The translations under genes and the position numbers were made by a program. Shown piece by piece: positions 1,884 through 64,000 of a stretch of 64,000 bases of DNA. The stretch comes from Verrucomicrobia bacterium Ga0077533. Its GTDB lineage: Bacteria; Verrucomicrobiota; Verrucomicrobiia; Opitutales; Opitutaceae. Each line of letters starts with the position of its first letter. Positions within the stretch are counted from its first letter, which is position 1. The stretch covers positions 8,886 through 72,885 of the forward strand of contig LNEH01000121.1 of NCBI GenBank assembly GCA_001464505.1. The letters run 5' to 3'. Under the pieces are notes generated by a model. It was not told the origin of the DNA. It searched no databases and saw only the letters and a program-made list of their open reading frames with translations.

Positions 1884-1966
1884 TGTCATGCTGAGCGAAG
1901 TGAAGAAACCAGCATGAAAATCCTAGCGCATATCCGGCTGGATCCTTCGCTACACTCAGGATGACA
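1884..1966. repeat. Palindromic element, family A (TGTCATNCTGAGCG...CTCAGRATGACA), intergenic
   Basis: Imperfect inverted arms; homologous to 3231-3313, 57116-57199 and 62642-62725. Confidence 0.85.
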
Positions 1967-1974
1967 TGATCAAA

Positions 1975-2763
1975 ATGTCGGATCTTTTCCTTAGCCTCAT
2001 TCGCATTCTGGCGCTGCTTGGCATCGCCTACGTGCTGCTGGCCGTGGGCACCCATTTCCTGGCGGGGTGGATGATATTCCCGCGTCCGCCGGTGAAATAT
2101 GAGCTGGGGCCGGACTACGTTCAGTTGACGGCGCCCGATGGCGTGAAGATCGCGGCCCGGCACTGGCCGAACCCGCAGGCGAAACACACGCTGCTCTACC
2201 TGCACGGCAACTATGAGGATCTTGGCAGTATCGGCGACTATATGCCGCAGTTTGTTGCCGCGGGCTACGCCGTATTCGCCATCGATTACCGGCGCTACGG
2301 ACACAGTGAAGGCACACCAACCGAGGCCAACGCCTGTTCCGACGCGGCCCTGGCCTACGAACATATGCGCACCAAACTGGGCGTGCCGGCGGACCGGATT
2401 GTCATCTTTGGCTACTCGCTCGGGTCCGGCCCAGCGGTCGAACTGGCCCGGCACCAGCCGGCGGCCGGCCTCGTGATCCAAGGTGCATTTACCAGCGCTT
2501 ATCGCGTCATGACGACCATCCCGGTTTTTCCCGGCGATAAATTTGTCAACATCGCAAAGATGCCGGAGCTTAAGCTGCCGGTGTTCGTGATCCACGGCAA
2601 GGCAGACGACACCGTTCCGTTCTGGCACGGGGAGAAACTCTACGAGGCCATCACCGCCCGAAAGGGGAAGCTGTTTGTCGAGGGCGGACCGCACGCCGGC
2701 CTGGCTGACTTCACCGGCCCGCGCTATTGGGAGGAGCTCCGGAAGTTCACCGACTCCTTGTAG
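1975..2763 (+). CDS. Alpha/beta hydrolase
   Basis: LYLHGN, GYSLG nucleophile elbow, IHGKADDTVP; N-terminal TM segment. Confidence 0.9.
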   Translation: MSDLFLSLIRILALLGIAYVLLAVGTHFLAGWMIFPRPPVKYELGPDYVQLTAPDGVKIAARHWPNPQAKHTLLYLHGNYEDLGSIGDYMPQFVAAGYAVFAIDYRRYGHSEGTPTEANACSDAALAYEHMRTKLGVPADRIVIFGYSLGSGPAVELARHQPAAGLVIQGAFTSAYRVMTTIPVFPGDKFVNIAKMPELKLPVFVIHGKADDTVPFWHGEKLYEAITARKGKLFVEGGPHAGLADFTGPRYWEELRKFTDSL

Positions 2764-2807
2764 GTGGCGTGCTGGCACGCCACATTGCGCGCCAGCGCGC
2801 AACCTAC
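2760..2807. repeat. GTAG REP doublet, family K; supplies the stop codons of both convergent genes
   Basis: GTAGGTGGCGTGCTGGCACGCCAC...GCGCGCAACCTAC; homologous to 58401-58480. Confidence 0.75.
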
Positions 2808-3220
2808 GCCAGATCCGCCGGCCCGAACGCACCGGGCAGCAGTTCGCGCGTGCTGGAAGCAATCTGGCCTTGGCCCCGGCAGATGGAGAGGACGCGGGCG
2901 TCGGGGCCGAATTCGTTGATGACCTGGCGGCAGGCGCCGCAAGGAGCCGTGGGCATGTCGGTCGGGGTGTAAACGACCACGCACTGCAGGCGGAGTTTCT
3001 TTTCACCCGCAGCCACAGCATTGAAGATGGCGGTGCGCTCGGCGCAGTTGGTCAGGCCGTAGGAGGCGTTTTCGACATTGCAGCCGGAGTAAATATTCCC
3101 GGACGAGGTCAGGATGGCGGCGCCGACCGTGAACTTGGAGTAGGGCGCGTAGGCCCGGCCGGCGGCGGTCTTGGCCGCGGTTTTGAGTTTCCTGAGTTGG
3201 GCGGGAGTGGGGCTTTTCAT
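2804..3220 (-). CDS. cdd: Cytidine deaminase
   Basis: AYAPYSKF, NVENASYGLTNCAERTA, PCGACRQ. Confidence 0.95.
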   Translation of the reverse strand: MKSPTPAQLRKLKTAAKTAAGRAYAPYSKFTVGAAILTSSGNIYSGCNVENASYGLTNCAERTAIFNAVAAGEKKLRLQCVVVYTPTDMPTAPCGACRQVINEFGPDARVLSICRGQGQIASSTRELLPGAFGPADLA

Positions 3221-3230
3221 TTTAGTCACC

Positions 3231-3313
3231 TGTCATTCTGAGCGAAGCGAAGAATCCATGGGCTGTCACGCTGCGAGTGTTCCGCTGGATTCTTCGCTGC
3301 GCTCAGAATGACA
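3231..3313. repeat. Palindromic element, family A, intergenic
   Basis: TGTCATTCTGAGCGAAGCGAAGAATCCA...TGGATTCTTCGCTGCGCTCAGAATGACA. Confidence 0.9.
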
Positions 3314-3322
3314 AGCGCAGGG

Positions 3323-4561
3323 CTACAAGCCAAACTCCTGCTTCACCTCGGCGAACTTCTCAATGGCAAACGCGAGGTCTTCCCGGCTGTGCGCGGCGGA
3401 CACCTGGGTGCGGATGCGCGCCATGCCCTGCGGCACGACGGGGTAGAAGAAACCGATGACGTAGACGCCCTTCTCCAGCATCCGGGCGGCGACTTTTTGC
3501 GACAACGCCGCGTCACCGAGCATAACCGGCACGATGGGATGGGAGCCGGGGCGGATCGTGAGGCCGGCCTTGGTGAGGCCGTCGCGAAAAAACTTCGTGC
3601 TGGCCTCGAGTTTGTCGCGCAGCTCGGTCGAGCGGCTGAGCATTTCAAGGCACTTGACGGACGCGGCGGCGACGCTCGGGGCAATCGTGTTCGAGAAGAG
3701 ATAGGGCCGGGAGCGCTGGCGGAGCAGATCGATGATCTCCTTCCGGCCGCTGGTGTAGCCACCAGTGGCGCCGCCGAGGGCCTTGCCAAGGGTGCCGGTG
3801 AAAATGTCCACGCGGCCCGCGACACCGCAGTGCTCGTGCGTGCCGCGGCCGGTCTTGCCCATGAAACCGACGGCATGGCTGTCGTCGACCATCACGAGGG
3901 CATGGTATCTGTCGGCGAGGTCGCAAATGCCATTCAGGTTGGCGATATAACCGTCCATCGAGAACACGCCATCGGTGGCGATGAGCTTGAAGCGCGCCTT
4001 CGCGGCGTCGGCCTCCCGCAGCTTCGCTTCCAGATCCTCGAGGTGGTTGTTCTTGTAGCGGTAGCGCTGGGCCTTGCAAAGCCGGACGCCGTCGATGATC
4101 GAGGCGTGGTTCAATTCGTCCGAGATCACCGCATCCTCCGCGCCCAGCAGCGTCTCGAACAGGCCGCCATTGGCGTCGAAGCAGGAGGAGTAAAGGATGG
4201 TGTCGTCGGTGCCGAGAAACCGGGAGAGGGCCGCCTCGAGATCCTTGTGAATCTGCTGCGTCCCGCAGATGAAGCGCACCGAGGCCAGGCCGTAGCCCCA
4301 GCGGTCGAGCGAATCACGGGCGGCGGCGATGAGCTCGGGATGGTCGGCCAGACCGAGGTAATTGTTGGCGCAAAGGTTCAGCACCTTTCGGTCAGGCGAC
4401 CCTGAGCCTGCCTGCGGTGAGCCTGCCGAACCCGTCGAAGGGCTGGCCACCGCGATGTGCGCCGTCTGGTGCGTGGTGATCACGCGTTCGCGCTTGTAGA
4501 GCCCGGCGGCCTCGATCTCGCCGAGGGTCTGCTTCAGGTGGGTGGAATAGGCGGTGTTCAT
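3323..4561 (-). CDS. kbl: Glycine C-acetyltransferase (2-amino-3-ketobutyrate CoA ligase)
   Basis: [36 protein letters not shown]; adjacent to tdh. Confidence 0.96.
4400..4442. repeat. Family H element (CCCTGAGCCTGTCGAAGGG) with a nested related copy, in frame within kbl
   Basis: CCCTGAGCCT[GCCTGCGGTGAGCCTGCCGAACCC]GTCGAAGGG encodes [14 protein letters not shown]; same core at 50954-50973. Confidence 0.75.
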
Positions 4562-4572
4562 GAAATACGGGT

Positions 4573-4650
4573 AAACACGGAGGACGCAGAGATCGCGGAG
4601 GATTTGCCGAATGAATTATCTCCGCGAACTCTGTGCGCTCTGTGTTAAAA
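4573..4650. repeat. Imperfect inverted repeat built from about 9-bp units, intergenic
   Basis: AACACGGAGGACGCAGAGATCGCGGAG...CTCCGCGAACTCTGTGCGCTCTGTGTT. Confidence 0.7.
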
Positions 4651-4651
4651 A

Positions 4652-5695
4652 TCAGGTTTCCCAGTTGAGCACGATCTTGCCCGACTTGCCGGCGCCCATG
4701 AGCGCGAAGCCCTCCTGGAACTTTTCGACGGGCAGCCGGTGCGTGATGACCGGCTTGATGTCCATGCCGCCCTGCACCAGCGCGGTCATTTTATACCAAG
4801 TCTCGAACATCTCGCGGCCGTAAATGCCCTTCAGGTGAAGCATCTTGAAGACGATCTTGTTCCAGTCGACCTGCGCCTCCCCGGGATGCACCCCGAGCAG
4901 CGCGATCCGCCCGCCCATGACCATGTTGTCGATCATCTGGTTCAAGGCCTGGGCGCTGCCCGACATCTCCAGGCCGATGTCGAAGCCCTCGCTCATGCCC
5001 AGCTCCTTGTGCCAGACATCGGTCAGGTTCTCCTTGGTGACGTTGACCGTGCGGGTCGGGCCCAACTTTCTGGCCAGCTCGAGCCGGCCGTCATTGATGT
5101 CGGTGATGACAATTTTGCGCGCCCCGGCGGTCCGGGCCACGGCGATGGCCATGCAACCGATCGGGCCCGCCCCGGTGATGAGCACGTCCTCGCCCACGAG
5201 GTCAAACGAAAGGGCCGTATGCACGGCATTGCCCAGCGGGTCGAAGCAAGACACGACGTCGAGGTCCATGCCGGCGGGGATCTTCCAGATGTTGGACTGC
5301 GGTATGACCACATAATCGGCAAACGCGCCGTTGCGGTTCACCCCGACCCCCTGCGTGTTGGGGCAGAGGTGGCGGCGTCCGGCAAGGCAGTTGCGGCAAT
5401 GCCCGCAGACAATGTGCCCTTCGCCGGTGACGAGCTGGCCCTTGGTCAGGCCGGTGACGCCGTCGCCGACGTCCTCGACCGTGCCGACGTATTCGTGGCC
5501 GATGATCAGCGGCGGCTTGATGGTGCGCGCGGCCCACCGGTCCCATTTGTTGATATGCACGTCGGTGCCGCAGATGGAGGTCTTCTTGATTTTGATCAGC
5601 ACATCGTTGACCCCGGGGGCGGGGACCGGGGCCTCGGTCATGATGAGGCCGGGGGCGGCGGTGGGCTTGACGATGGCGCGCATGGTGGTGGACAT
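4652..5695 (-). CDS. tdh: L-threonine 3-dehydrogenase
   Basis: [43 protein letters not shown]. Confidence 0.97.
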
Positions 5696-5843
5696 GAGGG
5701 AAGTTGGTCTGGCGGGAAACTAGGCGGGATGCCCCGGCTGACAACTGTGAACAGCTGGCCGGGCCGGGCTAAAAGCCTATCCGAGTAAAGATCCCCGGAG
5801 CAAGCTCCGGGGCATTCCAATAATTCCGCTGCTGCCCGGTTTT

Positions 5844-5922
5844 TGTGGGAGCGACCTTGGTCGCGACAGTCGCGTGCATCAGCCGTCGCCAAGCCTATGG
5901 CTGACAAGAGCACGCTCCCACA
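5844..5922. repeat. GTGG REP doublet (family C-like) with a nested 30-bp family D element at 5879-5908
   Basis: TGTGGGAGCGAC...GCGTGCA[TCAGCCGTCGCCAAGCCTATGGCTGACAAG]AGCACGCTCCCACA. Confidence 0.8.
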
Positions 5923-6291
5923 GATTCAAACCAAGCCGGAGCATTCTGCTGGCCAGCAGAACGGGGTATTAGACCCAAAGGGAATAAAAAATACCTGAGC
6001 ACCGATCTGCTGAGAGAGGAGCCTGTGCGACCCGACTATCTCGCCCCCGAGATCGAGTTGCCGGGCTTCGAGAGTGACAAGCGCGCCTGCGCGACGTGCC
6101 TGGAAGCGGATTGCGCCGCGCGCCCGGTCTGAACCGGGAAGGTGGGCGCAAATAACCCGCGGTGCGGGCCGCGGGTTTGCTTGCCTGTAACTACGCCGAA
6201 GGCCGCAGGTTTCAGGACAAGCCCCGGGTTTCCAGCAGGAAACGACGGGACATTCTGTCCTCTGACTTCTGTTCTCCGTCCTCTGGTCGCC

Positions 6292-6849: not shown

Positions 6850-6962
6850 GACGGGGACAGGTAAGATGGTTTGGTTACGTAAAGGGATAGGATTACCGGT
6901 GCCGTTTCGGCGATGTCAACCTTGTCCTCGTTTTACTTCCTCGCGCTCATATTGGGGAAGTT

Positions 6963-9508: not shown

Positions 9509-9512
9509 GGCC

Positions 9513-10298
9513 ATGGCCAGACAGATCCATCCCACCGCCATCGTCGAGCCGGGTGCGGAATTGGGCGAGGACGTCGTGATCGGCGCCTACGCCTACGTCG
9601 GCGCCAAGGCCGTCCTAGGCGCCGGCACCGTGCTGCACCACCATGCCAGCGTCGAAGGCCACACCACGGTGGGGCAGAACTGCGAGATTTTCCCCTTCAC
9701 CTGCATCGGCACCAAGACGCAGGATCTGAAATACCGGGGCGGCCAACCCGGCGTGAGGATCGGTGACCGCAATGTTTTACGGGAATACGTCAGTGTGCAT
9801 GCCGCCACCAACGACGCGGAATTCACCGTGCTCGGCCACGACAACACCATTCTCGCCTACAGCCACATCGCGCACGATTGCCGGCTGGGCAGCCACATCA
9901 TCGCGAGCAATTCCGTCGGACTGGCGGGACACGTGATCATCGAGGACTATGTCGGCCTCGGGGCCAAGTGCGGCGTGCACCAGTTCTGCCGCGTGGGCGC
10001 CAATGCGATGGTCGGCGCCATGTCGAAGGTCGTGCAGGATGTGCCGCCCTTCGTCATCGCCGACGGCAATCCCGCCATTGCGCGTTCGATCAACAAGATT
10101 GGGCTGGAGCGCAACGGCTTTGCCCCGGAGCGGCTCGATGCGATCAAACAGGCGTTCCGGATTTTCTACCGGGCGGGCCACAATCGCACCCAGGCCTTCG
10201 AGCGCATGCGCGCCCACCCGCTGGTCACGACGGCGGATTTCCAGCATTTTCTCACTTTCGTCGAGCGCAGCGAACGCGGCGTGGTCGCCGGCCGGTGA
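9513..10298 (+). CDS. lpxA: UDP-N-acetylglucosamine acyltransferase
   Basis: IHPTAIV, hexapeptide repeats, HIAHDC, VHQFCRVG, QDVPPF. Confidence 0.96.
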   Translation: MARQIHPTAIVEPGAELGEDVVIGAYAYVGAKAVLGAGTVLHHHASVEGHTTVGQNCEIFPFTCIGTKTQDLKYRGGQPGVRIGDRNVLREYVSVHAATNDAEFTVLGHDNTILAYSHIAHDCRLGSHIIASNSVGLAGHVIIEDYVGLGAKCGVHQFCRVGANAMVGAMSKVVQDVPPFVIADGNPAIARSINKIGLERNGFAPERLDAIKQAFRIFYRAGHNRTQAFERMRAHPLVTTADFQHFLTFVERSERGVVAGR

Positions 10299-10701
10299 AT
10301 GTAGGTAGGGCGCACCGGCCCGGTGCGCCGCTTTCGTCGAGCGCAGCGAACGCGGCGTGGTCGCCGGCCGGTGAATGTAGGTAGGGCGCACCGGCCCGGT
10401 TCGGCATTTCCCCCAGTTCCCGCAGGAGATCGTAACTGTAGAGTCCCGTCCCGTGGCCGTCGCTGAAATCGAACCGGATGGCGTAGTTGCCGATGCGTTC
10501 CCAGCCGGTCACCTCGACCCCGACGTAATTCCGCGGGGCCTCGCCGCCATAGTGGTGGCCGAAGATGTCGCGCTCGCCGCGCACGGCGGCGCTCGGCGAG
10601 GCCGCCCGCAGCGTGGCGAATGAAATGAAACTCTCCCGGCCGTCCTCCCAGCGGAGGGCGACCTCGGTGCCGATGAGTTGGAGGTCGGCGGGTGTTTGCA
10701 T
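10252..10701 (-). CDS. DUF971 / gamma-butyrobetaine hydroxylase N-terminal-like protein; C terminus runs through the duplication
   Basis: LRAASPSA, IGNYAIRFDFSDGHGTGLYSY. Confidence 0.85.
   Translation of the reverse strand: MQTPADLQLIGTEVALRWEDGRESFISFATLRAASPSAAVRGERDIFGHHYGGEAPRNYVGVEVTGWERIGNYAIRFDFSDGHGTGLYSYDLLRELGEMPNRAGAPYLHSPAGDHAAFAALDESGAPGRCALPTFTGRRPRRVRCARRK
10255..10400. repeat. Exact 70-bp direct duplication (period 76) of the lpxA 3' end plus a GTAG REP hairpin
   Basis: 10255-10324 equals 10331-10400; REP hairpin GTAGGGCGCACCGGCCCGGTGCGCCG. Confidence 0.9.
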
Positions 10702-13444: not shown

Positions 13445-13463
13445 TGTAACGTATTATATTACA
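13445..13463. repeat. 19-bp AT-rich mini-palindrome, family I (TGTAACGTATTATATTACA)
   Basis: Identical copy at 61468-61486 inside uvrA. Confidence 0.8.
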
Positions 13464-13472
13464 CATTTCCCT

Positions 13473-23694: not shown

Positions 23695-23780
23695 TGTAGG
23701 GCGGGGTCGCCTGACCCCGCCGCGATCGGGATGCAGATTTCGCCGCGGAAACAGGCGGGATCAGGCGATCCCGCCCTACA
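23695..23780. repeat. GTAG REP doublet, family F, intergenic
   Basis: TGTAGGGCGGGGTCGCCTGACCCCGCC...GGCGGGATCAGGCGATCCCGCCCTACA; homologue at 58004-58064. Confidence 0.88.
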
Positions 23781-24914: not shown

Positions 24915-25035
24915 AACTCCAAGCCCCAAGCTCCAACCTCCAGTGAAAAACCAAGTATCAAGCTTCCAGCCGGACCTTTCGGCCCTTTGGCCGTTTGGTG
25001 CTTCGCTGGAGCTTGGCGGTTGGAGCTTGGAGCTT
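24914..25035. repeat. Inverted pair of 7-mer tandem arrays (CCAAGCT / TTGGAGC)
   Basis: Period-7 repeats on both arms; homologous block at 27458-27597. Confidence 0.8.
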
Positions 25036-27457: not shown

Positions 27458-27597
27458 AAAACATCCAAGCTCGCAAGCTCCAAGCTCCAGAGAATTTCCA
27501 ATCAGGAATTCCCCGCTATCGTCAGCTCCTGCCGTCAGGGTTGGGGGTTTGTGCTTTGGGGCTTCTTTGGAGGTTGGAGGTTGGAGGTTGGAGCTTT
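27458..27597. repeat. Inverted pair of 7-mer tandem arrays
   Basis: CAAGCTC units then TTGGAGG units; same family as 24914-25035. Confidence 0.8.
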
Positions 27598-36603: not shown

Positions 36604-36659
36604 TGTAGCGGCGGTCTACCTGTCATCCGTAGCCTTGGCGAAGGATGATGACCGCTACA
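36604..36659. repeat. GTAG REP (family E) interrupted by a 30-bp family D element at 36619-36648
   Basis: TGTAGCGGCGGTCTA[CCTGTCATCCGTAGCCTTGGCGAAGGATGA]TGACCGCTACA; uninterrupted arm at 48790-48810. Confidence 0.8.
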
Positions 36660-38469: not shown

Positions 38470-39045
38470 ATGAAACCCAAGGCCCTGCGCAAGAAGATCG
38501 CGAAGCTGGAGGATGCGCTCGTCACTCAGAACGAGCACCTGGCGGCACTCAAACGCCGTCTGCCCCCGGAGGTTGTGAAGGATTATTTTCTCTCCGGTCC
38601 GGACGGCAAGGTCCGGCTCTCCGAGCTGTTCCGCGGCAAGCGCGACCTCGTGGTCATCCATAACATGGGCCGCTCCTGCCGCTACTGCACGATGTGGGCC
38701 GACGGCTTCAACGGTCTGCGCCACCACCTGGCGAACCGCGCGGGCTTCGCCGTGGTGTCACCCGATGCGGTGCGCACCCAGCAGCAGTTTGCCCAAAGCC
38801 GGGGCTGGGAGTTTCCGTTTTATTCGGGCAAGGGCAGCACCTTCATCAAGGACATGGGTTACCTGCCCAGGCCGGGCGAGCCGATGCCCGGTGTCTCCAC
38901 CTTCCGGCGCAAGGGCGCGAAAATCTACCGCATCGCCACGGCGCCCTTCGGCCCGTTTGATCAATTCTGCGCGACATGGCCGCTCTTCGCCCTGCTCGAC
39001 GGCGGGGTGGGCGATTGGGCGCCGAAATACCGTTACGTTAAATGA
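38470..39045 (+). CDS. DUF899 thioredoxin-like protein
   Basis: LSELFRGKRDL, CRYC, PGVSTF. Confidence 0.8.
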   Translation: MKPKALRKKIAKLEDALVTQNEHLAALKRRLPPEVVKDYFLSGPDGKVRLSELFRGKRDLVVIHNMGRSCRYCTMWADGFNGLRHHLANRAGFAVVSPDAVRTQQQFAQSRGWEFPFYSGKGSTFIKDMGYLPRPGEPMPGVSTFRRKGAKIYRIATAPFGPFDQFCATWPLFALLDGGVGDWAPKYRYVK

Positions 39046-39719
39046 GCGGCGGATACTGGGCGGAGTTCCTGACCATTATGGTGGCCCATGCGCTGGCGGT
39101 GGCCAGTCCCGGCCCTGATTTCGCCCTCGTTCTCCGGCAAAGCCTCGCGCACGGCCGGCGCACCGCCATCTGGAGCAGCATCGGCATCGGGTGCGGGCTG
39201 TCGGTGCATATCACCTACTGCATCCTCGGACTCGGGCTGTTCCTGAAAAACTCCGCCGGGGCGCTCGCCACCGTCAAATACCTCGGCGCGGCTTATCTGC
39301 TCTATGTCGGAGTCCAGGCCCTGCGCGCCCGGCCGCGTCAGTCTGATGTGGATGTAGGTCGGGGTTTATCCCCGACACTCACGGAGCCTGTCGGGCATAA
39401 AGCCCGACCTACAAACCCAACGAACGGAGCTGCATGGACGACGGGCTTCCTGGTCAATGTCCTCAACCCGAAGGCCGCGCTCTTCTTCATTTCGCTCTTC
39501 CCGCTGGCCGTCAGCGTCACGACGCCGAAGCTCGTGCAGGCGGGCTATGGGGTGTGGATGACACTCTCAACGATGGCGTGGTTCAGCTTCGTGTCGGTGG
39601 TGTTCACGCGGGATGAGATCCGCCGCCGTTTCCTCCGCCACGGCCACTGGATCGACCGCGCGCTGGGTGTGGTGTTCATCGGCTTCGCCGTCAGCCTCGT
39701 GCTGGCGAAGCTGAAATAG
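39042..39719 (+). CDS. LysE/RhtB family exporter with in-frame REP insert
   Basis: SPGPDF, YLGAAYL, GFLVNVLNPKA. Confidence 0.92.
   Translation: MSGGYWAEFLTIMVAHALAVASPGPDFALVLRQSLAHGRRTAIWSSIGIGCGLSVHITYCILGLGLFLKNSAGALATVKYLGAAYLLYVGVQALRARPRQSDVDVGRGLSPTLTEPVGHKARPTNPTNGAAWTTGFLVNVLNPKAALFFISLFPLAVSVTTPKLVQAGYGVWMTLSTMAWFSFVSVVFTRDEIRRRFLRHGHWIDRALGVVFIGFAVSLVLAKLK
39353..39413. repeat. GTAG REP doublet, family B, in frame in the LysE gene
   Basis: TGTAGGTCGGGGTTTATCCCCGAC...GTCGGGCATAAAGCCCGACCTACA encodes [20 protein letters not shown]. Confidence 0.9.
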
Positions 39720-39743: not shown

Positions 39744-39811
39744 CTACGCGAAAACCGCGCCGCCGAGCAGTTGCTCGCCGTCGTAGAGCGCCAGAATCTG
39801 GCCGGAGGCGA
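39744..39811 (-). repeat. 68-bp duplicate of the mnmA 3' end
   Basis: Near-identical to 40266-40333; encodes [21 protein letters not shown]. Confidence 0.9.
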
Positions 39812-39822
39812 GGACCGCTGGC

Positions 39823-40020
39823 TCAGGGCGTGTTGTCTGGTTCGGGACGGGCCAGGGATTTCAGGATTTTCTTGGCGAGCAGTTCGTTGATCTCGCGGTG
39901 CCGGGGAACCGGTTCGGTGCGGCCGGTCTGCGGATTGTGGTAAATGTCGTGCTTGGCTCCGTGCCGGAGCAGAACACTGCCGGCCTGCTCAAGCCGCGCC
40001 ACCAGATCCCGGCGCTTCAT
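39823..40020 (-). CDS. hicA: HicA family toxin
   Basis: MKRRDL...RHGAKHDIY...VPRHREI. Confidence 0.9.
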   Translation of the reverse strand: MKRRDLVARLEQAGSVLLRHGAKHDIYHNPQTGRTEPVPRHREINELLAKKILKSLARPEPDNTP

Positions 40021-40208
40021 GCCACCTCAAATTCCTCGACCCTTCGTATTCCGGGGATTTCGTCGGATCGGAAGAGCTGAAACAGGTCGCGCAGATGATC
40101 CTTCAGATCGTCCAGGCTTTCACCTTGGGTCCAATGGTCGGGATGCGAGTTCAAGTAACCGAGATACTTGCCGTCCGCTTCCTTCCAGTAGGTGAACTGT
40201 AGTTTCAT
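40017..40208 (-). CDS. hicB: Short HicB-like antitoxin
   Basis: WTQGESLDDLKDHL; overlaps hicA. Confidence 0.85.
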   Translation of the reverse strand: MKLQFTYWKEADGKYLGYLNSHPDHWTQGESLDDLKDHLRDLFQLFRSDEIPGIRRVEEFEVA

Positions 40209-40265
40209 GGCTGGAAAGATGCATAAATTTCTGTCTAACGCCAGCAGAGCTTCTGCCAGCTGGGG

Positions 40266-41414
40266 TCACGCGAACACCGCGCCGCCGAGCAGTTGCTCGC
40301 CGTCGTAGAGCGCCATGATCTGGCCGGAGGCGATAGCGCGCTGGGGCTGCTCGAATTTGATGTGGGCGGAAGGCAACGCGCTGGGGTCAGCGCGTTCCAC
40401 CTCGGGATCAAACTCGATGAAGACGCGCGGGTCGCGGTAGCGGACTTTGCATTCGAGGCGGCGTTTTTCCGCAAGCGGATCGCCGATGAAGCTCAGGCTG
40501 TGCACGCGGCACTCGCCGGCCCACAGGCCCGGGGCGTCGGTGCCGTCGAAGGCGACCAGCAGCGCGTGGTCGCTCGCGCGTTTGCCGGTCACAACGTAGG
40601 CCTTGTCGTCGGTGTTGGAGGGGATGCGGATGCCGCGACGCTGGCCGATGGTGTAGTAATGCAGTCCGCGGTGCCCGCCCAAAACCTGGCCGTCGGTGGC
40701 GCGGACAATCGGGCCCGGGTGATCGGGCACGTAGGTTTTCAGGAAATCGGCCATCTTCACCTCGCCGATGAAACAGATGCCCTGGCTGTCCTGCTTCGCC
40801 GCGGTCGGCAGATGGGCGTCGGCGGCCAAGGCGCGCAACTCGGGTTTGGTCAGATGACCGATGGGAAAGCGGGCCAAGGCGAGTTGTTGCTGCGAGAGCA
40901 GCGCGAGGAAGTAGGACTGGTCTTTGTTTTTGTCGGAGCCTTCCAGGAGGGAATAGGTGGAACGCGTTGACCCCAACGCGTTGGCTTGGGCAAGCGCGCT
41001 GGGGTCAGCGCGCTCCACCTCCACCCGCCGCGCGTAGTGCCCGGTGGCGACAGCAGCGAATCCTTCGGCTTGGGCATACTTCGCGAACACGCCGAATTTC
41101 ATCTCGCGGTTGCACATCACATCAGGGTTGGGCGTGAGTCCGCGCTGGTAGCCGTCGAGCAGGTAGTCCACCACGAGCCGGCGGTAGTCCGCCATCAGGT
41201 TGACGACGCGAAACTCGATGCCGATTTTATCCGCCACGGCGCGGGCGTCGTCGATATCCTGCATCCAGGGACAGTGGCCGATGACGTTGTCCTCGTTGAT
41301 CCAGTTTTTCATGTAAGCGCCGACGACGTCGTGCCCCTGCTGTTTGAGCAGGAGGGCGGCGACACTGCTGTCGACGCCGCCGGACAGGGCGACGAGGATG
41401 CGCTCCAGGGGCAT
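40266..41414 (-). CDS. mnmA: tRNA 2-thiouridylase with two in-frame repeat inserts
   Basis: [39 protein letters not shown]. Confidence 0.97.
40374..40402. repeat. Family G single REP arm, in frame in mnmA
   Basis: CAACGCGCTGGGGTCAGCGCGTTCCACCT encodes [10 protein letters not shown]. Confidence 0.8.
40955..41020. repeat. Family G REP doublet (66 bp), in frame in mnmA
   Basis: AGGTGGAACGCGTTGACCCCAACGCG...CGCGCTGGGGTCAGCGCGCTCCACCT encodes [22 protein letters not shown]. Confidence 0.9.
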
Positions 41415-41481: not shown

Positions 41482-41536
41482 TGTGGGAGCGAGCTTGCTC
41501 GCGAGGATCGGAGTCGCGAGCAAGCTCGCTCCCACA
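41482..41536. repeat. GTGG REP doublet, family C, intergenic
   Basis: TGTGGGAGCGAGCTTGCTCGCGA...TCGCGAGCAAGCTCGCTCCCACA; copy at 56973-57033. Confidence 0.9.
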
Positions 41537-41583
41537 GTCTTCCGCTGGCGAGCCTTCTTCGCATTGGTAGTGGGTCAGTTTGC

Positions 41584-41646
41584 TGTAGGTCGGGCTTTAT
41601 GTCCGACAGTCAACCGCCACATGTCGGGGATAAACCCCGACCTACA
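41584..41646. repeat. GTAG REP doublet, family B, intergenic
   Basis: TGTAGGTCGGGCTTTATGTCCGAC...GTCGGGGATAAACCCCGACCTACA. Confidence 0.9.
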
Positions 41647-45153: not shown

Positions 45154-45291
45154 TGCAGCGGCGCCCTATGAGCGTCGGCGGCGGTCACAGACCGCCGCGA
45201 CAGGTCGGATCCGCGCCGCTCGAATGGTGGAAGGCTCGCGTCTCTGCGAGCCGAGATTGCGCCGACGGCCCGCGGGGACGCGGGCCCTCCA
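45154..45291. repeat. Two adjacent REP doublets: family E (45154-45202) and GGAG type (45228-45291)
   Basis: Homology to 48753-48810 and 58331-58395. Confidence 0.7.
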
Positions 45292-48752: not shown

Positions 48753-48810
48753 TGTAGCGGCGCTCTGTGAGCGCCGTTCCGAAGCCCGGCGGTCATAGAC
48801 CGCCGCTACA
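48753..48810. repeat. GTAG REP doublet, family E, intergenic
   Basis: TGTAGCGGCGCTCTGTGAGCGCCG...CGGCGGTCATAGACCGCCGCTACA. Confidence 0.88.
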
Positions 48811-50251: not shown

Positions 50252-51175
50252 TTAGCTTGAGCGCTTGGCCATGTTCTCGACCAGCGTGGTGAGGAACGGA
50301 GCGCCACCGGGCAGACGGGCGAGGGTGGACTTGGCGGCGTCGGACTGCTCCCGGGCGTGTCGGCGCGAGGCGTCGAGGCCGTGGAGCTTCACGTAGGTGG
50401 TCTTGCCGGCCTTGGCGTCCTTGCCGGCGGTCTTGCCGAGTGTCGCCGTGTCGGCGGTGGCGTCGAGGATGTCGTCCACGATCTGGAACGCCAGGCCAAG
50501 GTGCCGGCCGGCATCGCGCAGGGTGGCGAGCTGAACCTCGGTCGCCCCGCTACAGAGTCCGCCGGTGACGAGCGAGGCGCTGAGCATGGCGGCGGTCTTG
50601 TTGAGGTGGATGAACTCGAGTTCGGCCGCAGTGGCGTCGGCCTTACGCTCGGCGAGCAGGTCCTCCATCTGGCCGCCGATGAGCCGTTCGCTGCCGGCGG
50701 CGTCGGCGATCTCGCGGGTGAGCGCGGTGCAGAGGGCGGGCGAACCGGCGTAGTGCCGGCCGATGAGCTGGAAGGCGAGGGTGAGCAGCGCGTCGCCGGC
50801 GAGCAGCGCGGTGGCCTCGTCGAACTGCTTGTGCGCCGTGGCCCGGCCGCGGCGGAGGTCGTCGTTGTCCATGCACGGCAGATCGTCGTGGATGAGAGAG
50901 TAGGTGTGCAGGCACTCCATGGCCACGGCGGCGGGCAAGGCATCAATTGCCCGCCCTGAGCCTGTCGAATGGGCGGGGAGGGCGTCGGCTTTGCCGCCGA
51001 GAAGATCGGCGGCGGCGAGCACGAGAACCGGGCGGAGGCGCTTGCCGCCGGCTGCCAAACTGTAGCGCATGGCCGCGTGGAGGCGCGGGGGGCGGGTGGT
51101 GGCGGATGGCACCAAGGCGTCGAGGCCGTGCTCAATCCGCTCACGATAGGCGTGCAACTGGGCGGTGAATTCCAT
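50252..51175 (-). CDS. ispA: Polyprenyl (farnesyl) diphosphate synthase with an in-frame insert
   Basis: GGKRLRP, HDDLPCMDNDDLRRG, FQIVDDILD, GKTAGKD. Confidence 0.95.
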   Translation of the reverse strand: MEFTAQLHAYRERIEHGLDALVPSATTRPPRLHAAMRYSLAAGGKRLRPVLVLAAADLLGGKADALPAHSTGSGRAIDALPAAVAMECLHTYSLIHDDLPCMDNDDLRRGRATAHKQFDEATALLAGDALLTLAFQLIGRHYAGSPALCTALTREIADAAGSERLIGGQMEDLLAERKADATAAELEFIHLNKTAAMLSASLVTGGLCSGATEVQLATLRDAGRHLGLAFQIVDDILDATADTATLGKTAGKDAKAGKTTYVKLHGLDASRRHAREQSDAAKSTLARLPGGAPFLTTLVENMAKRSS

Positions 51176-51230
51176 GGGGGAACGGATTGACCTCAACGCG
51201 CTATGTGCCTTGGGGTCAAGCCGCTCCACC
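51176..51230. repeat. Degenerate family G doublet, intergenic
   Basis: GGAACGGATTGACCTCAACGCG...TTGGGGTCAAGCCGCTCCACC. Confidence 0.7.
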
Positions 51231-51310
51231 AAGTATTTGGCGCCGGAACGGGGCAAGAACAGTCTCGCCAAGCCTCGGGAGCCGAGGCATATCTTGCCGC
51301 ACTTTTCCGA

Positions 51311-56951: not shown

Positions 56952-56972
56952 ATGATGCGATCTCCATTCGTC

Positions 56973-57199
56973 TGTGGGAGCGAGCTTGCTCGCGACATCT
57001 GCACTCTGTGTCGCGAGCAAGCTTGCTCCCACAAAATCACCCTTTCTGTCATTCTGAGACTAGACAGCAAGCCGCAGGGCTTACGTGGAACTCGCCCATG
57101 AACTTTCCAAAGCAGTGTCATTCTGAGCGGAGCGAAGAATCCAGAATGATGAGCGCCGGCGGTTGTGCTGCTGGATTCTTCACTGTGTTCAGAATGACA
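56973..57199. repeat. Repeat cluster: family C doublet (56973-57033), family A fragment (57047-57058), family A element (57116-57199)
   Basis: Direct homology to the other copies in this window. Confidence 0.88.
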
Positions 57200-57225
57200 C
57201 GCATCGTTTGTCTGGATTTGGCTGC

Positions 57226-58324
57226 ATGATCCTCGCCTTGGAAAGTTCCTGCGATGAGACGGCGGTGGCCGCCTTCGACCCGGCGCACGGCCTGGTTGGC
57301 GAGTGGGTGCATAGCCAGATCGCCTTGCACGAGGCCTACGGCGGGGTCGTGCCCGACCTTGCCAGCCGCGAACACCTGGCCAATTTCGGCCCGTTGCTTG
57401 CCCGGGCGCTGGCCGCGGTGCCCGCGGATAAATTCTCGAAGATCGCCGTGACCAACGGGCCGGGGCTGGCCGCTTGTCTGGCCATTGGCTTGGAGCGTGC
57501 CCGTGGCCGGGGTCAACCACCTGCGGGCCCACGCTTTTTCGCCCTTCATCGCCCTTCATGCCGCCAACCCGGCGGCCTTCGACGCGGCGTTTGCCAAGTT
57601 GCTGCCGCATCTCGGCCTGCTCGTCTCGGGCGGCAACACGGCGCTGTTCAGCATCGACGAGTCGCGGCGCATCCGGCTGCTCGCCACGACGATGGACGAT
57701 GCGGCGGGCGAGGCGCTCGACAAGGGGGCCAAGCTGCTCGGGCTGGGCTACCCCGGCGGACCGCAGGTGGAGAAACTGGCGGCAACCGGCAATGCGGCGG
57801 CCTTTGAATTTCCCAAGGCTGTCGCCCAGCGCTCGTCACTTGAGTTCAGTTTTTCCGGGCTGAAGACCAGCCTGCGTTACCAGTTGGAGAAAATGCCGCC
57901 GGTCGAGATCGAACGCCGCAAGGCCGACCTGTGCGCCAGCTACCAGGCGGCGGTGTTCAATGCCTTGGTGCGCAAGTCCAAGCTGGCGCTGGAGCGGGGT
58001 TTCGCAGGGCGGGGTCGCCTGACCCCGCCGTCCGAAAAGGCGGGATCAGCGATCCCGCCCTACAGTGCTGAGCCGATGGAAGTGAGCGCCTACCGCAGCT
58101 TCGGGCTGTCCGGCGGCGTGGCGAACAACAAGACTTTGCAGGCCGAGTTGGCGAAGGTTGCGCAGGCGCAAAACATCCCGTTCTACCGCGCCCAACCCCA
58201 GCACACCGGCGACAACGCCGGGATGATCGCGTTCGCGGCTTGGGCTGAGCGCGAGCCGGGTGGAATCAGCGAGGCCGGTCTCGGATTGCAGATCGCGCCG
58301 AGCCTGGCGCTGGCGGCAGGGTAG
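57226..58324 (+). CDS. tsaD: t6A synthase TsaD; frameshift near 57490; in-frame family F insert
   Basis: LESSCDET...GPGL in one frame; VNHLRAH, VSGG, DDAAGEALDK, SFSGLKT, DNAGMIA in another. Confidence 0.9.
58004..58064. repeat. Family F doublet, in frame in tsaD
   Basis: GCAGGGCGGGGTCGCCTGACCCCGCC...GGCGGGATCAGCGATCCCGCCCTACA encodes AGRGRLTPPSEKAGSAIPPY. Confidence 0.88.
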
Positions 58325-58330
58325 GATTGC

Positions 58331-58527
58331 TGGAGGGCGCGCGTCCCTGCGCGCCGCGAAGGTCAACTGCGGCCCGCAGGGGCGCGGACACTCCACTAAA
58401 TGCAGGTTGGGCGCTCGCCGCAACGTGGCGTGCATCGGCCGTCGCCAAGCCTATGGCCCGACAAGAGCACGCCACCTACAGGTTCAGCAGTTCCGCCGTC
58501 GCTCCTGCGGAGCTATGGCGAGACAAG
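58331..58527. repeat. Repeat cluster: GGAG doublet (58331-58395), family K with nested D (58401-58480), 36-bp D variant (58492-58527)
   Basis: Homology to 45228-45291, 2760-2807, 5879-5908 and 60276-60311. Confidence 0.8.
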
Positions 58528-58561
58528 TGAGCTACAGTGGCGGCTTCGAAGAACCGGGTTC

Positions 58562-61500
58562 CTATGCCTTCAGTTTATCGCGCAAGTAAGGAGCGGTAGG
58601 ACTATTTCTAATTCTGAGCAGCCCGGCGAGCGGGCCTTGGTAGAGAATCTCGCCGCCGCCGGGGCCGCCGTTGGGCCCGAGTTCGACGATGTAGTCGGCT
58701 TCGGCGAGCAGGTCGAGATGGTGTTCGATGACGACGACCGTGTGGCCTTGGTCGACGAGGTTGTGGAGGACCTTGATGAGTTTCTCGCAGTCGCTGAGGT
58801 GCAGGCCGATGGTCGGTTCCTCAAGCAGGTAGAGGTTTTTTATGGCGATGTTGTGGGAACGCTCCTTGTAAGTGGCCAGGCCCTTGGCCAATTCCGTGAC
58901 AAGCTTGAGGCGCTGGGCTTCGCCGCCCGAGAGGGTTGGGCTGCTCTGGCCGAGCGTCAGGTAGCCGAGGCCGCAATCGACCATCAGCTGGCACACCTGC
59001 GAGAGCTGGGAGTGGAAAGCGAAGAATATAGCGGCCTCGTCGAAGGAGAGTCGCAGCACTTGGCCGATGGTCTTGCCCTTCCACGCGATATCGGCCAATT
59101 CTGATCCGTAGCGCGAACCGCCGCAGGCGTCGCAGGGCAGGTAGGAGTCGGGCATGAACGCCATCTCGAGTTTGATGCGGCCGGCGCCGGAACAGGTCTC
59201 GCAGCGGCCGCCCGCGACATTGAAGGAGAATCGTCCTGCGCCGTAGCCGCGCATCTTCGCCTCCGGCAAGGAGGCAAAGAACTGGCGGATCAGGTCGAAG
59301 ATGCCGAGGTAGGTGGCGGGCGTGGAGCGGGGCGTCTTGCCGATGGGCGACTGGTCCACCTCGATCACGCCCTTGAAGTGCTGCGCGTTGCGCAGCTCTT
59401 CAAAGGGCATTTTGGATATTGGATTCCCGATTTTCGATTGCTCGGCATCGAACTTGGCGAGCTTCACGAAATCACGTCCGCTGAGTTTGACTTTCTTCTG
59501 CTTGAGCGCGCAGGTGACGGCGGGATGCAGGATGTCGCGGAAGAGCGTGGACTTGCCCGCGCCGCTCGGACCGCAGGCCATCGTGAGCCGGCCGAGCGGC
59601 AGGCGCAGGGTCTGGTTGCGGAGATTTCGGAAATTGATGCCGGTGAGCTCCAGCCAGTCGAGGTGGAGCGCGCTGACCCCCGCGCGCTTTGAACGTCCTG
59701 GGGTCAGGCCGTTCCACCTTGGCATCGGGCGGTAACTGCCGCGCAGCGGATGATTGATGCCCTTGGCGAGGAAGAGACCGGTCAGGGAGGAGGCGTTCAG
59801 CTTGATGCCGGCGGGGCTTTCATTGGCCAGCACGGTGCCGCCATGGATGCCGGCGCCGGGACCGAGGTCGATGATGCGGTCGGCGCGTTTCATGACGACA
59901 TCGTCGTGCTCGACGACCAGCACGGTATTGCCCTTGTCGCGGAGAGTGAGGAGCGTCTCGACCAGCCGGTCGTTGTCGCGGGCGTGCAGACCGATGGAGG
60001 GCTCGTCGAGCACGTAGAGGACGCCGGAAAGATTGGAGCCAAGCTGGGCGGCCAACCGGATGCGCTGGGCCTCGCCTCCGGACAGGGTCTCGGTGGGGCG
60101 ATCCAGCTGCAGGTAGTCGAGTCCGACCGAGCCGAGGAAGCGCAGACGCTCCTCGATCTGCGGGACGATGTCCCGGGTGATGAGCTTGCCGCGGGCGTCG
60201 AGCTGGAGGTTACGCAGCGTGGCGAGCAGATCGTCGGGCGTGAGCCGCAGGAGGTCCGAGAGTGAAATAGAATCGTCCGCCTTCGCTCCCTTGGAGCTAC
60301 GGCGAGATACGGGCAGTTTCACTGCCCTTGCGATGCGGTTGAGGCGTTCGCCATGGCAGGTGGGGCAGGCCGTGGATTTTTGATTTTCGATTTCGGATTT
60401 TAGATTGGATTTCAAGTCGGCGAGTTCGGCCGGGAGCTGTTCGGCTTCATCGTCTTTCTCCTCCAGCATCCAGTCGTAGATGCGGCCGTGGCCGCGGCAG
60501 GTCGGACACCAACCCTTGGGCGAATTGAAGGAGAAATGCTTCGGGTCGAGCTCGGGGAAGGACTCACCGCTCTGGATGTCGGTGCGCGTCGTGGAGAACC
60601 AGCTCAGGATCTCTCCGGTGGGAGTCAAAAGGAAGCAGGAGCCTTTGCCGAGCTTGAGGGCGGTCTCCAGCGCGCGCGCTGGAGAGTCGAAGGACGAGCG
60701 TCGAGAGTCGAGGACCGGCAGTTGCTTTCGACCTTGGGCTTTCGGCTTTCGACTGGTGAGTTGCGATTTCAGGTCGCAAACCACCACCTCCACATCGTGC
60801 TCCTTGTAGCGGTCCAGCTTTTGGAAAGCGTCGACCCGCAGCACGCGACCGTCGACGCGCATGAGTTCGTAGCCCTGTTTTCCGATCCACTTGGCGATCG
60901 GCTCGTGGTGGCCCTTGCGGCCGCGGATGAGCGGGACGCAGAGGTAGAGGTGTCTGGTCTTTTTCGCCTTGGGGGTGGCGAGGATCTTATCCAGCAGCAG
61001 ACGGAGCTGGCTGGGCGTGAGCGGCGTGACGGCCCGGCCCGTCTCGGGGTGGTGCTGGATGCCGAGCCGGGCGTAGAGCAGGCGGAGGTATTGGGCGACC
61101 TCGGTGATGGTGGCGACGGTGGACTTGCGCGAACCGCGGGTGACACGTTGCTCAATGGCCACCGTTGGCGGGATGCCGCTGAGCCGGTCGATGTCGGGCC
61201 GGGGCAGTTGCTCGACGAATTGCCGGGCGTAGGGCGACATCGATTCCATGAAGCGCCGCTGGCCCTCGGCAAAGATGATGTCGAAGGCCAGGGTGGACTT
61301 GCCCGAGCCGGACACGCCGGTGACGACCGAGAACTGCCGGTGCGGGATGGAGACGGAGATGTTCTTGAGGTTGTTCTCGCGGGCCCCGAGCACGGTCAGC
61401 TCGCCGGGGCTCATCGCGAGGGCAGTCTGATAAGGCGCGGCGTCCTCCGCAGCAGCGAGCGGCGAAGTGTAACGTATTATATTACACTCTTCCAGGGCGT

Positions 61501-64000
61501 GGCGCAGGAACGGCGAGGTGGCGGTATCGGCACGGGCGAGGGCCTCGGGCGGGCCTTCGGCGACGATGCGGCCGCCGTGGGCGCCGGCCTCGGGGCCGAC
61601 CTCGAGGATCCAGTCGGCGGATTTAAGCACATCGAGATTGTGCTCAATGACGACGAGGCTGTGTCCGCGGTCCACGATGCGCTGGAGCACGGCCAGCAGG
61701 CGCTTCACATCGTGACGGTGCAGGCCGGTGGTGGGTTCGTCGAGGAGGAGCAGGGCGCGGGCCGGCTCTTTTGTAGGTCGGGGTTTATCCCCGACTTCGG
61801 GTGTTGGTGTCGGGCGTAAAGCCCGACCTACATCGGATTCATTTGTGAATTCTGACAGGTAGCGGACGAGCTTAAGTCTCTGCGATTCACCCCCACTCAA
61901 TGTATTCAACGGCTGGCCGAGCGGAAGGTAGCCGAGGCCGACCTCGTCGAGGGCGGCAAGCCGGCGGTGGATCTCGGGATGCCCGGCGTCCCGTTGCGGC
62001 GTGCTCGCCGCCCGGGATGCGTCCGCAGAACTCGCGCGCCATTCGTCGCGATTCTGCGGCGCAAAGAGCACCAGCGCATCGGTGACATTCATCGCGAGCA
62101 GATCGGCGACGGAGTGGCCGTTCCACGTGATGGCGCGCACCTCGGGCTTGAAGCGTTGGCCCTCGCAGATGGGGCAGGGCACAAAGACATCGGAAAGGAA
62201 CTGCATCTCGACCCGCTCACTGCCGAGGCCCTGGCAGTTGTCGCAGCGTCCGTCTCCGCTGTTGAAGGAAAAGCTTGAGGCGCTGAAACCGGCCGCCTGC
62301 GCGGCCGGCACCGTGGCATAGAGTTCGCGGATGAGTTCCCAGGCCTCGCAGTAGAGCGCAGGGTTGGAACGTGGCGTCCGGCTGAGCGGCGACTGGTCGA
62401 CCAGCACGACCTCGGAGAAGACGAGGTCGGACTTCACGGCCTCGATTTCGGCCGGATCCCCGGTCATCAGGCTGCGTTGGGTGAGCAGGCCCTGGCAGAT
62501 GATGTTGTCGAGCAGCGTGGATTTGCCGGAGCCGGAGACGCCCGACAGACACACGAAGCGCTGGAGCGGCAGGCGAAAGGAGAGATTTCGGACATTATGC
62601 TTGGAGGCGTTGGTGAAGGAGAGCCACTTGGTTTCCTCGCCTGTCATCCTGAGCGAAGCGAAGGATCCAGAATGACTTTTGCTGGCGGTCGTGTTGCTGG
62701 ATTCTTCGCTGCGCTCAGAATGACAAGCCACGGGCCGTCTCACGGCCGGGGCGTCGATCCGCTGGCGGCCGGAGAAGTAGGCGCCGGTGATGCTCAGCGG
62801 CGCGGCCAGCATGCCGCCGACCGAGCCTTGATACACAATCTTGCCGCCGCGGGCGCCCGGCTCCGGACCGACTTCAATCACATGATCGGCGGCGCGGATC
62901 ATCGCCTCGTCGTGCTCGACGACGACCACCGTGTTGCCCGCATCGGTGAGGGTGCGGATGATGCCGAGCAGCCGGTCGATATCGCGCGGGTGCAGGCCGA
63001 CGGAAGGTTCGTCGAGCACGAAGAGCGTATCGACGAGCGAGGTGCCGAGGCAGGAGGTGAGGTTGACGCGCTGGACCTCGCCGCCGGAAAGCGTGCGCGA
63101 GGTGCGATCAAGGGTCAGGTAGCCCAGGCCGACCTGGGCGAGATAGCGCAGCCGGGTGACAATGGAGTCGTGGGCGAGGTCGCGTTGATGGGCGGAGGAA
63201 ATGTCGCGACCATCAGCCGTCGCCCAAGGCCAGCAGTTCGCTGATGGGCAGTTGGTAGAGTTGGGACAGGGTGCGGCCACGCCATTTCCAACAGAGCGCC
63301 TCGGGCTGGAGCCGGGCGCCGTGGCAATCGGGGCAGGGGTTGTAGGCCCGGTAGCGCGAGAGGAAGACCCGCACATGCATCTTGTAGGTCGTCTTCTCCA
63401 TCCAGCGGAAAAACCCCTTCAAGCCATACCAGTATTTCGGCCAGCGGTTGAGCTTGCCATCGTAACCCGGCGAGCCATCGAGCACGAACGCCTTCTGCTC
63501 CGGCGTGAGCGCGGCGAAGGGGACGTTGGTGGGCAGGCCGAGTTTTTTGGTGAAGCGGAGCAGGTCTTTTTTGGACTCACCGTAAATGACGCCCTCCCAC
63601 GGCCGGATGGCGCCCTCGTCGATGGACACGGAGTGGTCGGGGATGGCGAGGCGGTAGTCGATGTCGATGACGCGGCCAAAGCCCCGGCATTTCGGGCACG
63701 CGCCGAGCGGGGAGTTGAAGGAGAACATCCCGGGCGAGGCGGGACGGAAGGTGCGACCGGTCTTCGGCGAGTGCAGGCCGCGCGAGTAATGGCCGGCGGG
63801 CGGGAATTGCGGATTGCGGAGTGCGGATTGCGGAGTGCCGAACAGAAACACTTCACCTTTGCCAAAATGGAGGGCGGTTTCGGTGGCCTCGAGGAAGCGG
63901 GACTTGTTGTCGGCGGTGATCAGCAGACGATCTTGGATGACGTAGAGAAATGACGAATGACGAAGGACGAAAGTCGAAGGTTTGGCGGCGAGCAGGTCAT
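58562..64000 (-). CDS. uvrA: Double-length (tandem) UvrA; 5' end beyond the window; +1 frameshift near 63222; many in-frame repeat inserts
   Basis: Four LSGGE signatures, three visible Walker A motifs (GVSGSGKS twice, GPSGAGKS), FSFNS and CxxC zinc motifs. Confidence 0.95.
59661..59719. repeat. Family G doublet, in frame in uvrA
   Basis: AGGTGGAGCGCGCTGACCCC...GGGGTCAGGCCGTTCCACCT encodes [20 protein letters not shown]. Confidence 0.85.
60276..60311. repeat. 36-bp family D variant, in frame in uvrA
   Basis: TCCGCCTTCGCTCCCTTGGAGCTACGGCGAGATACG vs 58492-58527; encodes [12 protein letters not shown]. Confidence 0.8.
61468..61486. repeat. Family I 19-mer, in frame in uvrA
   Basis: Identical to 13445-13463; encodes CNIIRY. 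Confidence 0.8.
61772..61832. repeat. Family B doublet, in frame in uvrA
   Basis: Encodes [20 protein letters not shown] between the signature motif and Walker B. Confidence 0.9.
62642..62725. repeat. Family A element (84 bp), in frame in uvrA
   Basis: Encodes [28 protein letters not shown]; arms and spacer close to 57116-57199. Confidence 0.92.

Follow-up and report, generated by a model that had tools for sequence, protein, structure and literature searches.

The 64,000-nucleotide stretch of Verrucomicrobia bacterium Ga0077533 analyzed here (hereafter the window; part of contig C121 in an assembly of 2.93 Mb, 64% GC and 83% completeness) contains numerous short palindromic repeats that lie both between genes and, in frame, within conserved protein-coding genes, foremost among them a long uvrA. 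We observe the repeats and their copy numbers, empty sites in orthologous genes, the exchange of one family for another in the same protein loops between species, partner genes bracketed by repeats, and a precise, duplication-free insertion of the 30-base family D. Judging from sequence, we consider it likely that independent families of tiny repeats are copied in trans, settle in frame in a few protein loops, are there predicted to be translated as tolerated disordered peptides, and are purged by selection where a copy is harmful. The nearest named relatives of the window's Kbl protein are records from Opitutus, Lacunisphaera and other Opitutaceae.

Results

Repeat families and their distribution in the genome

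A previous sequence-only reading of the window had listed 21 palindromes in families A, B, D, F, G, H and I, and all 21 coordinates carry palindromes as described. Profiles were built for these and for four further families (J, C, E and B2), seeded from window copies or from the flanks of genes for REP-associated tyrosine transposases (RAYTs; REP, repetitive extragenic palindrome), with each threshold above the best score in the reversed genome, in which by this very choice no arm of any family is found. One more profile, the twelfth, took its seed from the C12 RAYT flank, strayed onto family G with 78 overlaps, and was excluded prior to any counting. The profiles recover 18 of the 21 listed sites; D at 58492, D at 60276 and H at 4400, which are longer-loop or nested variants, fall below threshold. 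Genome-wide, the arms number 124 (A), 79 (B), 178 (D), 15 (F), 158 (G), 61 (H), 44 (I), 77 (J), 164 (C), 94 (E) and 57 (B2). A k-mer survey revealed additional families beyond these eleven, and longer AT-rich k-mer repeat families (11-23 copies, median length 75-99 bases) were also noted.

The families had been described as all unrelated, which proved too sweeping. A GTAG/GTGG guide, 0-2 bases 5' of a GC-rich hairpin, is common to B, F and G and also to C, E, J and B2, as judged by consensus and by the folds of B and G; it is not present in the consensus of A, D, H or I, nor in the 75-base element N75 described below. Inverted dimers make up 33/37 of the single-family elements of B, 60/76 of G, 54/96 of C, 24/46 of E, 22/43 of J, 19/34 of B2 and 3/10 of F. 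Families A and D have in common a TGTC head and purine-mismatched stems. Family A combines this head with a short stem and a CCA tail and forms inverted dimers, D has the TGTC head but a GA tail, the head of H is not clear, and I is an AT-rich palindrome. For all families but I, several reading frames or both strands are used, in keeping with the earlier view that the unit is DNA and not a peptide motif; the family G peptides quoted for it, VERADPSAL in MnmA and RWNGLTPG…VSALHL in UvrA, are correct.

Genes were called with our own hexamer model (2590 genes, 83% coding). The 1051 arms merge into 669 elements, of which 454 are intergenic, 72 lie in frame inside 62 genes, 31 are in frames with weak flanks and 112 are at gene or contig edges. 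Family H, reported from genes only in the earlier reading, is intergenic in 23 of 43 H-only elements. Element density is 0.91/kb between genes and 0.040/kb within them (0.057 with the weak cases), so that the tolerance of inserts ascribed to this lineage must be qualified by a 16-23-fold sparser presence inside genes. If frame and stop codons were the sole filter, approximately 327 internal copies would be expected, and 72-103 are observed. Dimer lengths modulo three are evenly spread in both classes (63/59/68 and 12/16/9), which rules out dimers pre-sized to multiples of three and suggests that variable junctions together with selection, and not design, preserve the frame; the exceptions are D, at 30 bases, and N75, at 75 bases.

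Helicases, repair enzymes and RNA-modifying enzymes account for approximately 20 of the 62 host genes, as judged with a scan of the 57 host proteins outside the window. Four of the ten Helicase_C genes carry six elements against 0.85 expected (Poisson p 0.0003), in a test that was picked after the list had been seen. Low expression was considered as a reason for host choice and rejected, as the codon-score difference (p 0.0003) fell to p 0.34 after the inserts were masked.

Empty sites and repeated use of the same loops

Empty sites were found in orthologs of all six host genes named in the sequence-only reading. The identity of uvrA was confirmed against solved structures; the names of the other window genes are taken from that reading and presumably hold, as they agree with known motifs. 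UvrA was compared across the 29 best loci among 60 relatives searched, one of which (G014) was misaligned and left out of the tree and loop counts. Among the relatives, 13 loops differ in length, and a given loop can be empty in one genome and filled by a REP dimer, a D unit or a heptamer array in others. Heptamer arrays fill loops of both UvrA and IspA, and four such arrays in uvrA, together with N75 at 61988-62062, were additional to the inserts first listed. G034 and G007 also carry the family A insert found here at 62642, and neither is sister to this genome on the weakly resolved UvrA tree; shared ancestry with loss, recombination or repeated insertion may each account for this. MnmA was modelled with AlphaFold: its core has a mean pLDDT (predicted local distance difference test) of 87, both inserts are coil with pLDDT 42-71, and the invariant motifs are intact.

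The family D unit, N75 and tRNA ends

Of the 178 family D arms, 78 are full 30-base units. Exact removal of 30 bases restores a sequence known elsewhere in 40/78 cases, compared with 7, 1 and 1 for removal of 29, 31 and 32 bases. Target duplication is essentially absent (a 3-base duplication in 1/78), the target fits a five-base pattern in 45/78 against a 3% background, and 25/78 units are nested in arms of the profiled families, among them D. In addition, 17 of 38 tRNA genes are followed without a gap by a D- or H-like arm that starts with the CCA (background 0.24%). Insertion without duplication at a short motif resembles HUH chemistry by analogy; the genes that neighbor D are of the GIY-YIG type. 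We also noted a coiled-coil, SMC-like protein (L448:1-4104, G000:C209) with at least three in-frame D units that appear as alanine-rich ten-residue segments.

N75 folds into two stable stems and occurs in the genome as three identical copies, in uvrA, in a DinG-like helicase gene and in a third gene that we take to be metH. G009 carries a 74-base identical copy in a different UvrA loop, and 7 of 8 metagenome contigs matching a 22-base probe contain N75 at 97-100% identity. All six frames of N75 are open and the same one is used at 4/4 distinct scorable coding sites, for which the simplest reading is selection for the mildest peptide; three other copies sit in heptamer arrays and were not scored as coding. 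The empty uvrA site of G025 already resembles the first 11 bases around the N75 junction.

Candidate partner genes

Seven Y1 transposase matches were found in the genome, five of them above the NCBIfam NF047646 RAYT cut-off, and these five RAYT genes are enclosed between inverted arms of E, J, C, B2 and, weakly, F-like type. Below the cut-off, L001 and L003 encode longer Y1 proteins (open frames of 335 and 288 residues) and are flanked by GGGGTCAG-type ends that are not REPs. In relatives, where 55 of 57 Y1 loci were located, B brackets one (G013) and F two (including G009).

Nine small GIY-YIG genes are present here, seven of which follow tRNA genes. None is bracketed by family A in this genome, and A lies on both sides of 4 of the 36 GIY-YIG loci located in relatives, which encode single-domain proteins of ~100 residues that we presume to resemble Ssn. 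Family D lies upstream (only) of 9 of these 36 loci, eight with a detected tRNA, and H lies upstream of one. CCCCTCT-type hairpins, abundant and outside the profiled set, occur 3' of the single DUF559 gene (G000:C104:14100-14510), and similar hairpins flank a GIY-YIG gene in L165.

Heptamer periodicity is found on a flank of 20/30 four-helix-bundle loci compared with 29/739 control genes, and inverted words common to both flanks occur at 17/30 four-helix-bundle and 20/30 GxxExxY loci compared with 15/739 controls; both sets take in loci from the present genome, and among the four-helix-bundle loci one place is counted twice.

Family I brackets a gene for a protein of 120-147 residues with a weak likeness to XRE-type helix-turn-helix proteins. 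No Pfam family reaches its cut-off with this protein and no fold is matched at E 0.001, the weak hits being XRE/Cro helix-turn-helix proteins. The gene is present in 23/24 genus relatives and 0/16 other families, and AT-rich palindromes stand on both sides of it at 15/35 loci compared with 1/555 control genes. RhuM was rejected as an alternative partner, as it is single-copy and no flanking repeat was seen. Family K, a relative of I with ~30 copies in several contigs, brackets one helix-turn-helix gene at C190. An integron att site was also considered as an identity for family I: among 12 integron integrase loci, an I-type palindrome directly follows the stop codon (within ~10 bases) in four and not in the other eight. 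These integrase-adjacent palindromes (L405:387-2200, L406, L402 and L416; three with a helix-turn-helix gene) keep a constant central TATTA with co-varying 7-base arms.

Features of the window

Coordinates are collected in Table 1. Beyond the elements discussed above, a 73-base direct repeat with 76-base spacing lies at 10255-10403, each copy with a family J arm, and intergenic inverted heptamer arrays that enclose no gene lie at 24917-25035 and 27464-27593. Two small genes at 39746-40333, presumably a hicB-hicA-like pair, have the end of mnmA on one side and a 66-base duplicate of this end on the other, an arrangement like that of an integrated cassette.

Table 1. Repeat elements of the window and the genes that hold them
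Feature	Position	Strand	Remarks
Long double-module uvrA, main host gene	58562..64000, continues beyond window	-	frameshift near 63213; 13 length-variable loops among relatives
Two heptamer arrays, N-terminal part of uvrA, in frame	63806-63838 and 63949-63971 (63806..63971)
Remnant D unit nested in E arm, at uvrA frameshift	63203..63225		mismatch-free X1 contig departs from window sequence here
Family A inverted dimer, in frame in uvrA, +31 residues	62642..62725		14/23 spanning sequences empty; A also in G034, G007
N75, 75-base double-hairpin element, exactly 25 codons, in uvrA	61988..62062	-	three identical genome copies, all genic, same frame
Family B (GTAG REP) dimer, in frame in uvrA	61772..61832
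Family I AT-rich palindrome, in frame in uvrA	61468..61488
Inverted heptamer arrays, in frame in uvrA	60682..60751		same loop short in 13/29 sequences
Heptamer array, in frame in uvrA	60375..60406
Family D long-loop variant, in frame in uvrA	60276..60308		below profile threshold
Family G (GTGG REP) dimer, in frame in uvrA	59661..59719
Family G dimer, in frame in mnmA (40266-41414, -)	40955..41020		empty in 12/23 full-length relatives; low-confidence coil in model
Single family G arm near mnmA end, in frame	40375..40402		empty or nearly so in 15/23 relatives; coil between two strands in model
Family B dimer, in frame in LysE-type gene (39042-39719, +)	39353..39413		absent in 9/9 aligned relatives
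Family F dimer, in frame in tsaD (57226-58324, +; frameshifted near 57485)	58003..58065		long insert in 5/24 relatives, at most 8 residues in 19
Nested family H variant, in frame in kbl (3323-4561, -)	4400..4443		9/11 spanning relatives empty
Family H arm, in frame in ispA (50252-51175, -)	50954..50972		8/13 relatives empty; other 5 with unrelated inserts, several heptamer-like
Family A dimer, intergenic	1884..1966
Family A dimer, intergenic	3231..3313
Family A dimer, intergenic	57116..57199
Family E dimer, then family B dimer (41584-41646), intergenic	41482..41646
E-type dimer, second arm with nested 30-base D unit (5879-5908)	5844..5925
30-base D unit in loop of family C hairpin	36619..36648	+
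Two D units, intergenic: 58435-58464 nested in REP-like arm, 58492-58524 long-loop variant	58435..58524
Family F dimer, intergenic	23695..23780
Family G dimer just upstream of ispA	51175..51231
Family I palindrome, intergenic	13445..13465
Family C (GTAG REP) dimer, intergenic	45154..45202
Further C and E elements	48753-48810, 56973-57033
Family J	10303-10406

Discussion

In the mechanism we propose, small partner genes elsewhere in the genome would copy the repeats around the chromosome in trans, the inserts would be translated as tolerated disordered loop peptides, and selection would remove those copies that break the frame or hit the folded core. Families B, F, G, C, E, J and B2 would be moved by RAYT HUH transposases, which are expected to cut and rejoin single-stranded DNA at variable short sites, and these variable junctions would allow only some insertions to keep the frame. 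Family A may spread with an Ssn-like single-strand GIY-YIG nuclease, and D and H with the small tRNA-linked GIY-YIG genes, with host repair or RAYT as candidates for the joining step. The heptamer arrays may derive from four-helix-bundle gene cassettes, and family I may represent the scars or operators of a small helix-turn-helix gene cassette. Hairpins already present would likely serve as targets for later insertions, resulting in a turnover of the loops. The earlier proposal of mobilization in trans keeps its core, as candidate enzymes (the five RAYT genes and small GIY-YIG genes) lie outside the window, but not its single class of enzyme for all families; likewise, the expected bracketing of RAYT or GIY-YIG genes holds for several families, and was seen for A and B in relatives only and not for G.

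Several points weigh against this mechanism. Flanking repeats are an association with a gene, not catalysis. Family G brackets no Y1 gene among the 7 loci of this genome and the 55 located in relatives, and no partner gene of A or B was found in this 83% complete genome. Across 11 genomes the RAYT count and the UvrA insert load are not significantly correlated (rho 0.38, p 0.25). A GIY-YIG nuclease has no known strand-joining step, whereas D inserts precisely, and family A does not conform to the published SRM motif, whose 31 genome hits (22 in the reversed genome) overlap no family. Finally, both uvrA and tsaD are broken in this assembly, and neither frameshift is bridged by contigs assembled from the read runs X1 and X2.

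A wider version of the proposal, which we put forward only tentatively, holds that at least five unrelated micro-element systems operate in parallel in Opitutaceae (RAYT, Ssn-like GIY-YIG, tRNA-linked GIY-YIG, four-helix-bundle/GxxExxY and the helix-turn-helix cassette), all of them feeding the same loops. Family D would then be an undescribed, frame-keeping 30-base element that enters single-stranded hairpin loops and the junction of tRNA discriminator base and CCA without duplication, driven by a small GIY-YIG protein, and the loops would be continually rewritten, with new peptides trialled in essential enzymes.

The need for dedicated enzymes can be questioned altogether, as host repair, template switching or gene conversion at short matches in hairpins might spread the repeats, with the partner genes as origin sites or passengers. 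The preference of D for existing hairpin loops, with a profiled arm regenerated on excision of 25 of the 78 units, would fit such a process, as would the junction-like empty uvrA site of G025, the lack of correlation between RAYT number and insert load and a family I partner in which a catalytic domain is not evident. We nevertheless consider it unlikely, for each RAYT gene is bracketed by its own family, the D unit has fixed ends and a target preference well above background, and the E. coli RAYT carries out single-strand cleavage and strand transfer in vitro, as reported by Ton-Hoang et al. A lower probability still is given to inserts being favored in DNA- and RNA-handling enzymes, through targeting or positive selection, with peptides that tune activity: the same loop in close relatives holds unrelated peptides or none, so that no peptide is conserved, and inserts are strongly depleted from genes overall. 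The share of such enzymes among the hosts, the post hoc Helicase_C excess, the single frame used by N75 out of six open ones and the same enzyme bias in Di Nocera et al. (PMC3733652) speak in its favor, but large multi-domain enzymes may merely offer more tolerant loops.

That the host genes are decaying pseudogenes, or the inserts assembly artefacts, is highly unlikely, notwithstanding the modest read depth (~4-5 in the best run) and the presence of a second, shorter uvrA of standard length. The sequence-only reading had described the host genes as open, and this stands for all but uvrA near 63213 and tsaD near 57485 in this assembly. The first of these shifts falls inside a D/E remnant, at which an X1 contig departs from the window sequence, and the uvrA break of G027 is an N gap within an insert, which together suggest assembly errors; tsaD is ~29 bases shorter than its relatives at 57470-57500, distant from any repeat. 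Both frameshifts are probably assembly artefacts. Moreover, mismatch-free X1/X2 contigs span the F insert of tsaD and several uvrA inserts, mnmA, kbl, ispA, lysE and tsaD each have one match in the genome, and relatives carry inserts within long open uvrA frames of ~1900-2100 codons. We give hardly any credence to the removal or skipping of inserts at the RNA level, which would leave the proteins without them. All families form hairpins and N75 has its two stable stems, but the genic inserts preserve the reading frame and are read without stops, even though stop codons occur in some frames of most arms, a constraint that would be needless if the inserts were removed; the window is without any Rfam match at gathering thresholds, and by eye the 12 candidates for gene-breaking inserts looked mostly like gene ends or junctions.

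In-frame REPs in Opitutaceae genes were already published in 2013. Di Nocera et al. (PMC3733652) report that Opitutus terrae, of the same bacterial family, has the most intragenic GTAG REPs, with singles and dimers in frame in many genes, both uvrA genes among them, and with uvrA hit repeatedly; with some 70 cases in the supplement, in-frame palindrome insertion is not chiefly a Rickettsia matter, as had been supposed. HrpA, QueA, dihydrolipoamide acetyltransferase, HI0933 family and DEAD-box helicase hosts are common to that list and ours, as is the bias toward DNA/RNA enzymes. Three GTAG families are listed inside genes there, compared with at least eleven hairpin families, heptamer arrays and N75 here, including non-GTAG families; the empty sites, the re-use of the same loops across species and the proposed partner genes of several classes go beyond that report. 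What is new is the many systems that share loops, the D unit, family I and N75.

The classical REP/REPIN-RAYT systems (PMC3333891, PMC6006769) are described with a GT[AG]G guide at the hairpin foot, inverted dimers, a mostly intergenic location and arms that bracket a Y1 HUH gene, a likeness restricted here to B, F, G, C, E, J and B2, with G lacking a partner; Quentin et al. (2018), who define the features of REPs, also describe in-frame REPs inside subclass 2.4 tnpA-REP genes. Family A is closer to the SRM/NTS-SsnA system of Chenal et al. 2025 (PMC11893778), in which NTS brackets ssnA and NTS-like repeats are linked to GIY-YIG nucleases, in its TGTC head, short stem, CCA tail, inverted dimers and bracketing of single-domain GIY-YIG genes in relatives, and is unlike it in failing the SRM motif. 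That article presents Ssn as a nuclease affecting transformation, with mobility as a hypothesis only, and the term 'tRNA' is absent from its main text, as is the link of D and H to tRNA ends. The Rickettsia elements RPE-1, RPE-4 and RPE-6, as cited by Di Nocera et al. (PMC3733652), are likewise in-frame palindromes in housekeeping proteins, and our alignments and the MnmA model show the corresponding in-frame insertion, absence in orthologues and non-core position. RPE-4 and RPE-6 are CGTC REPs, like family A here, and for CGTC REPs these authors report that no transposase was found. In contrast to Rickettsia, the host here is, to judge from its genome, no reduced intracellular bacterium; its loops are shared by many families, and it has candidate enzymes. 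Within the literature searched, whose scope excluded most subscription papers, we found no account of the D/tRNA, four-helix-bundle/GxxExxY or family I links.

These observations make testable which enzymes move non-GTAG repeats and what roles the small GIY-YIG, four-helix-bundle and GxxExxY proteins have, and in family D both the 30-base substrate and its target are defined. The loops that recur as hosts form a natural chart of where essential enzymes such as UvrA, MnmA and TsaD tolerate insertions, and give a direct view of new protein sequence arising from non-coding DNA.

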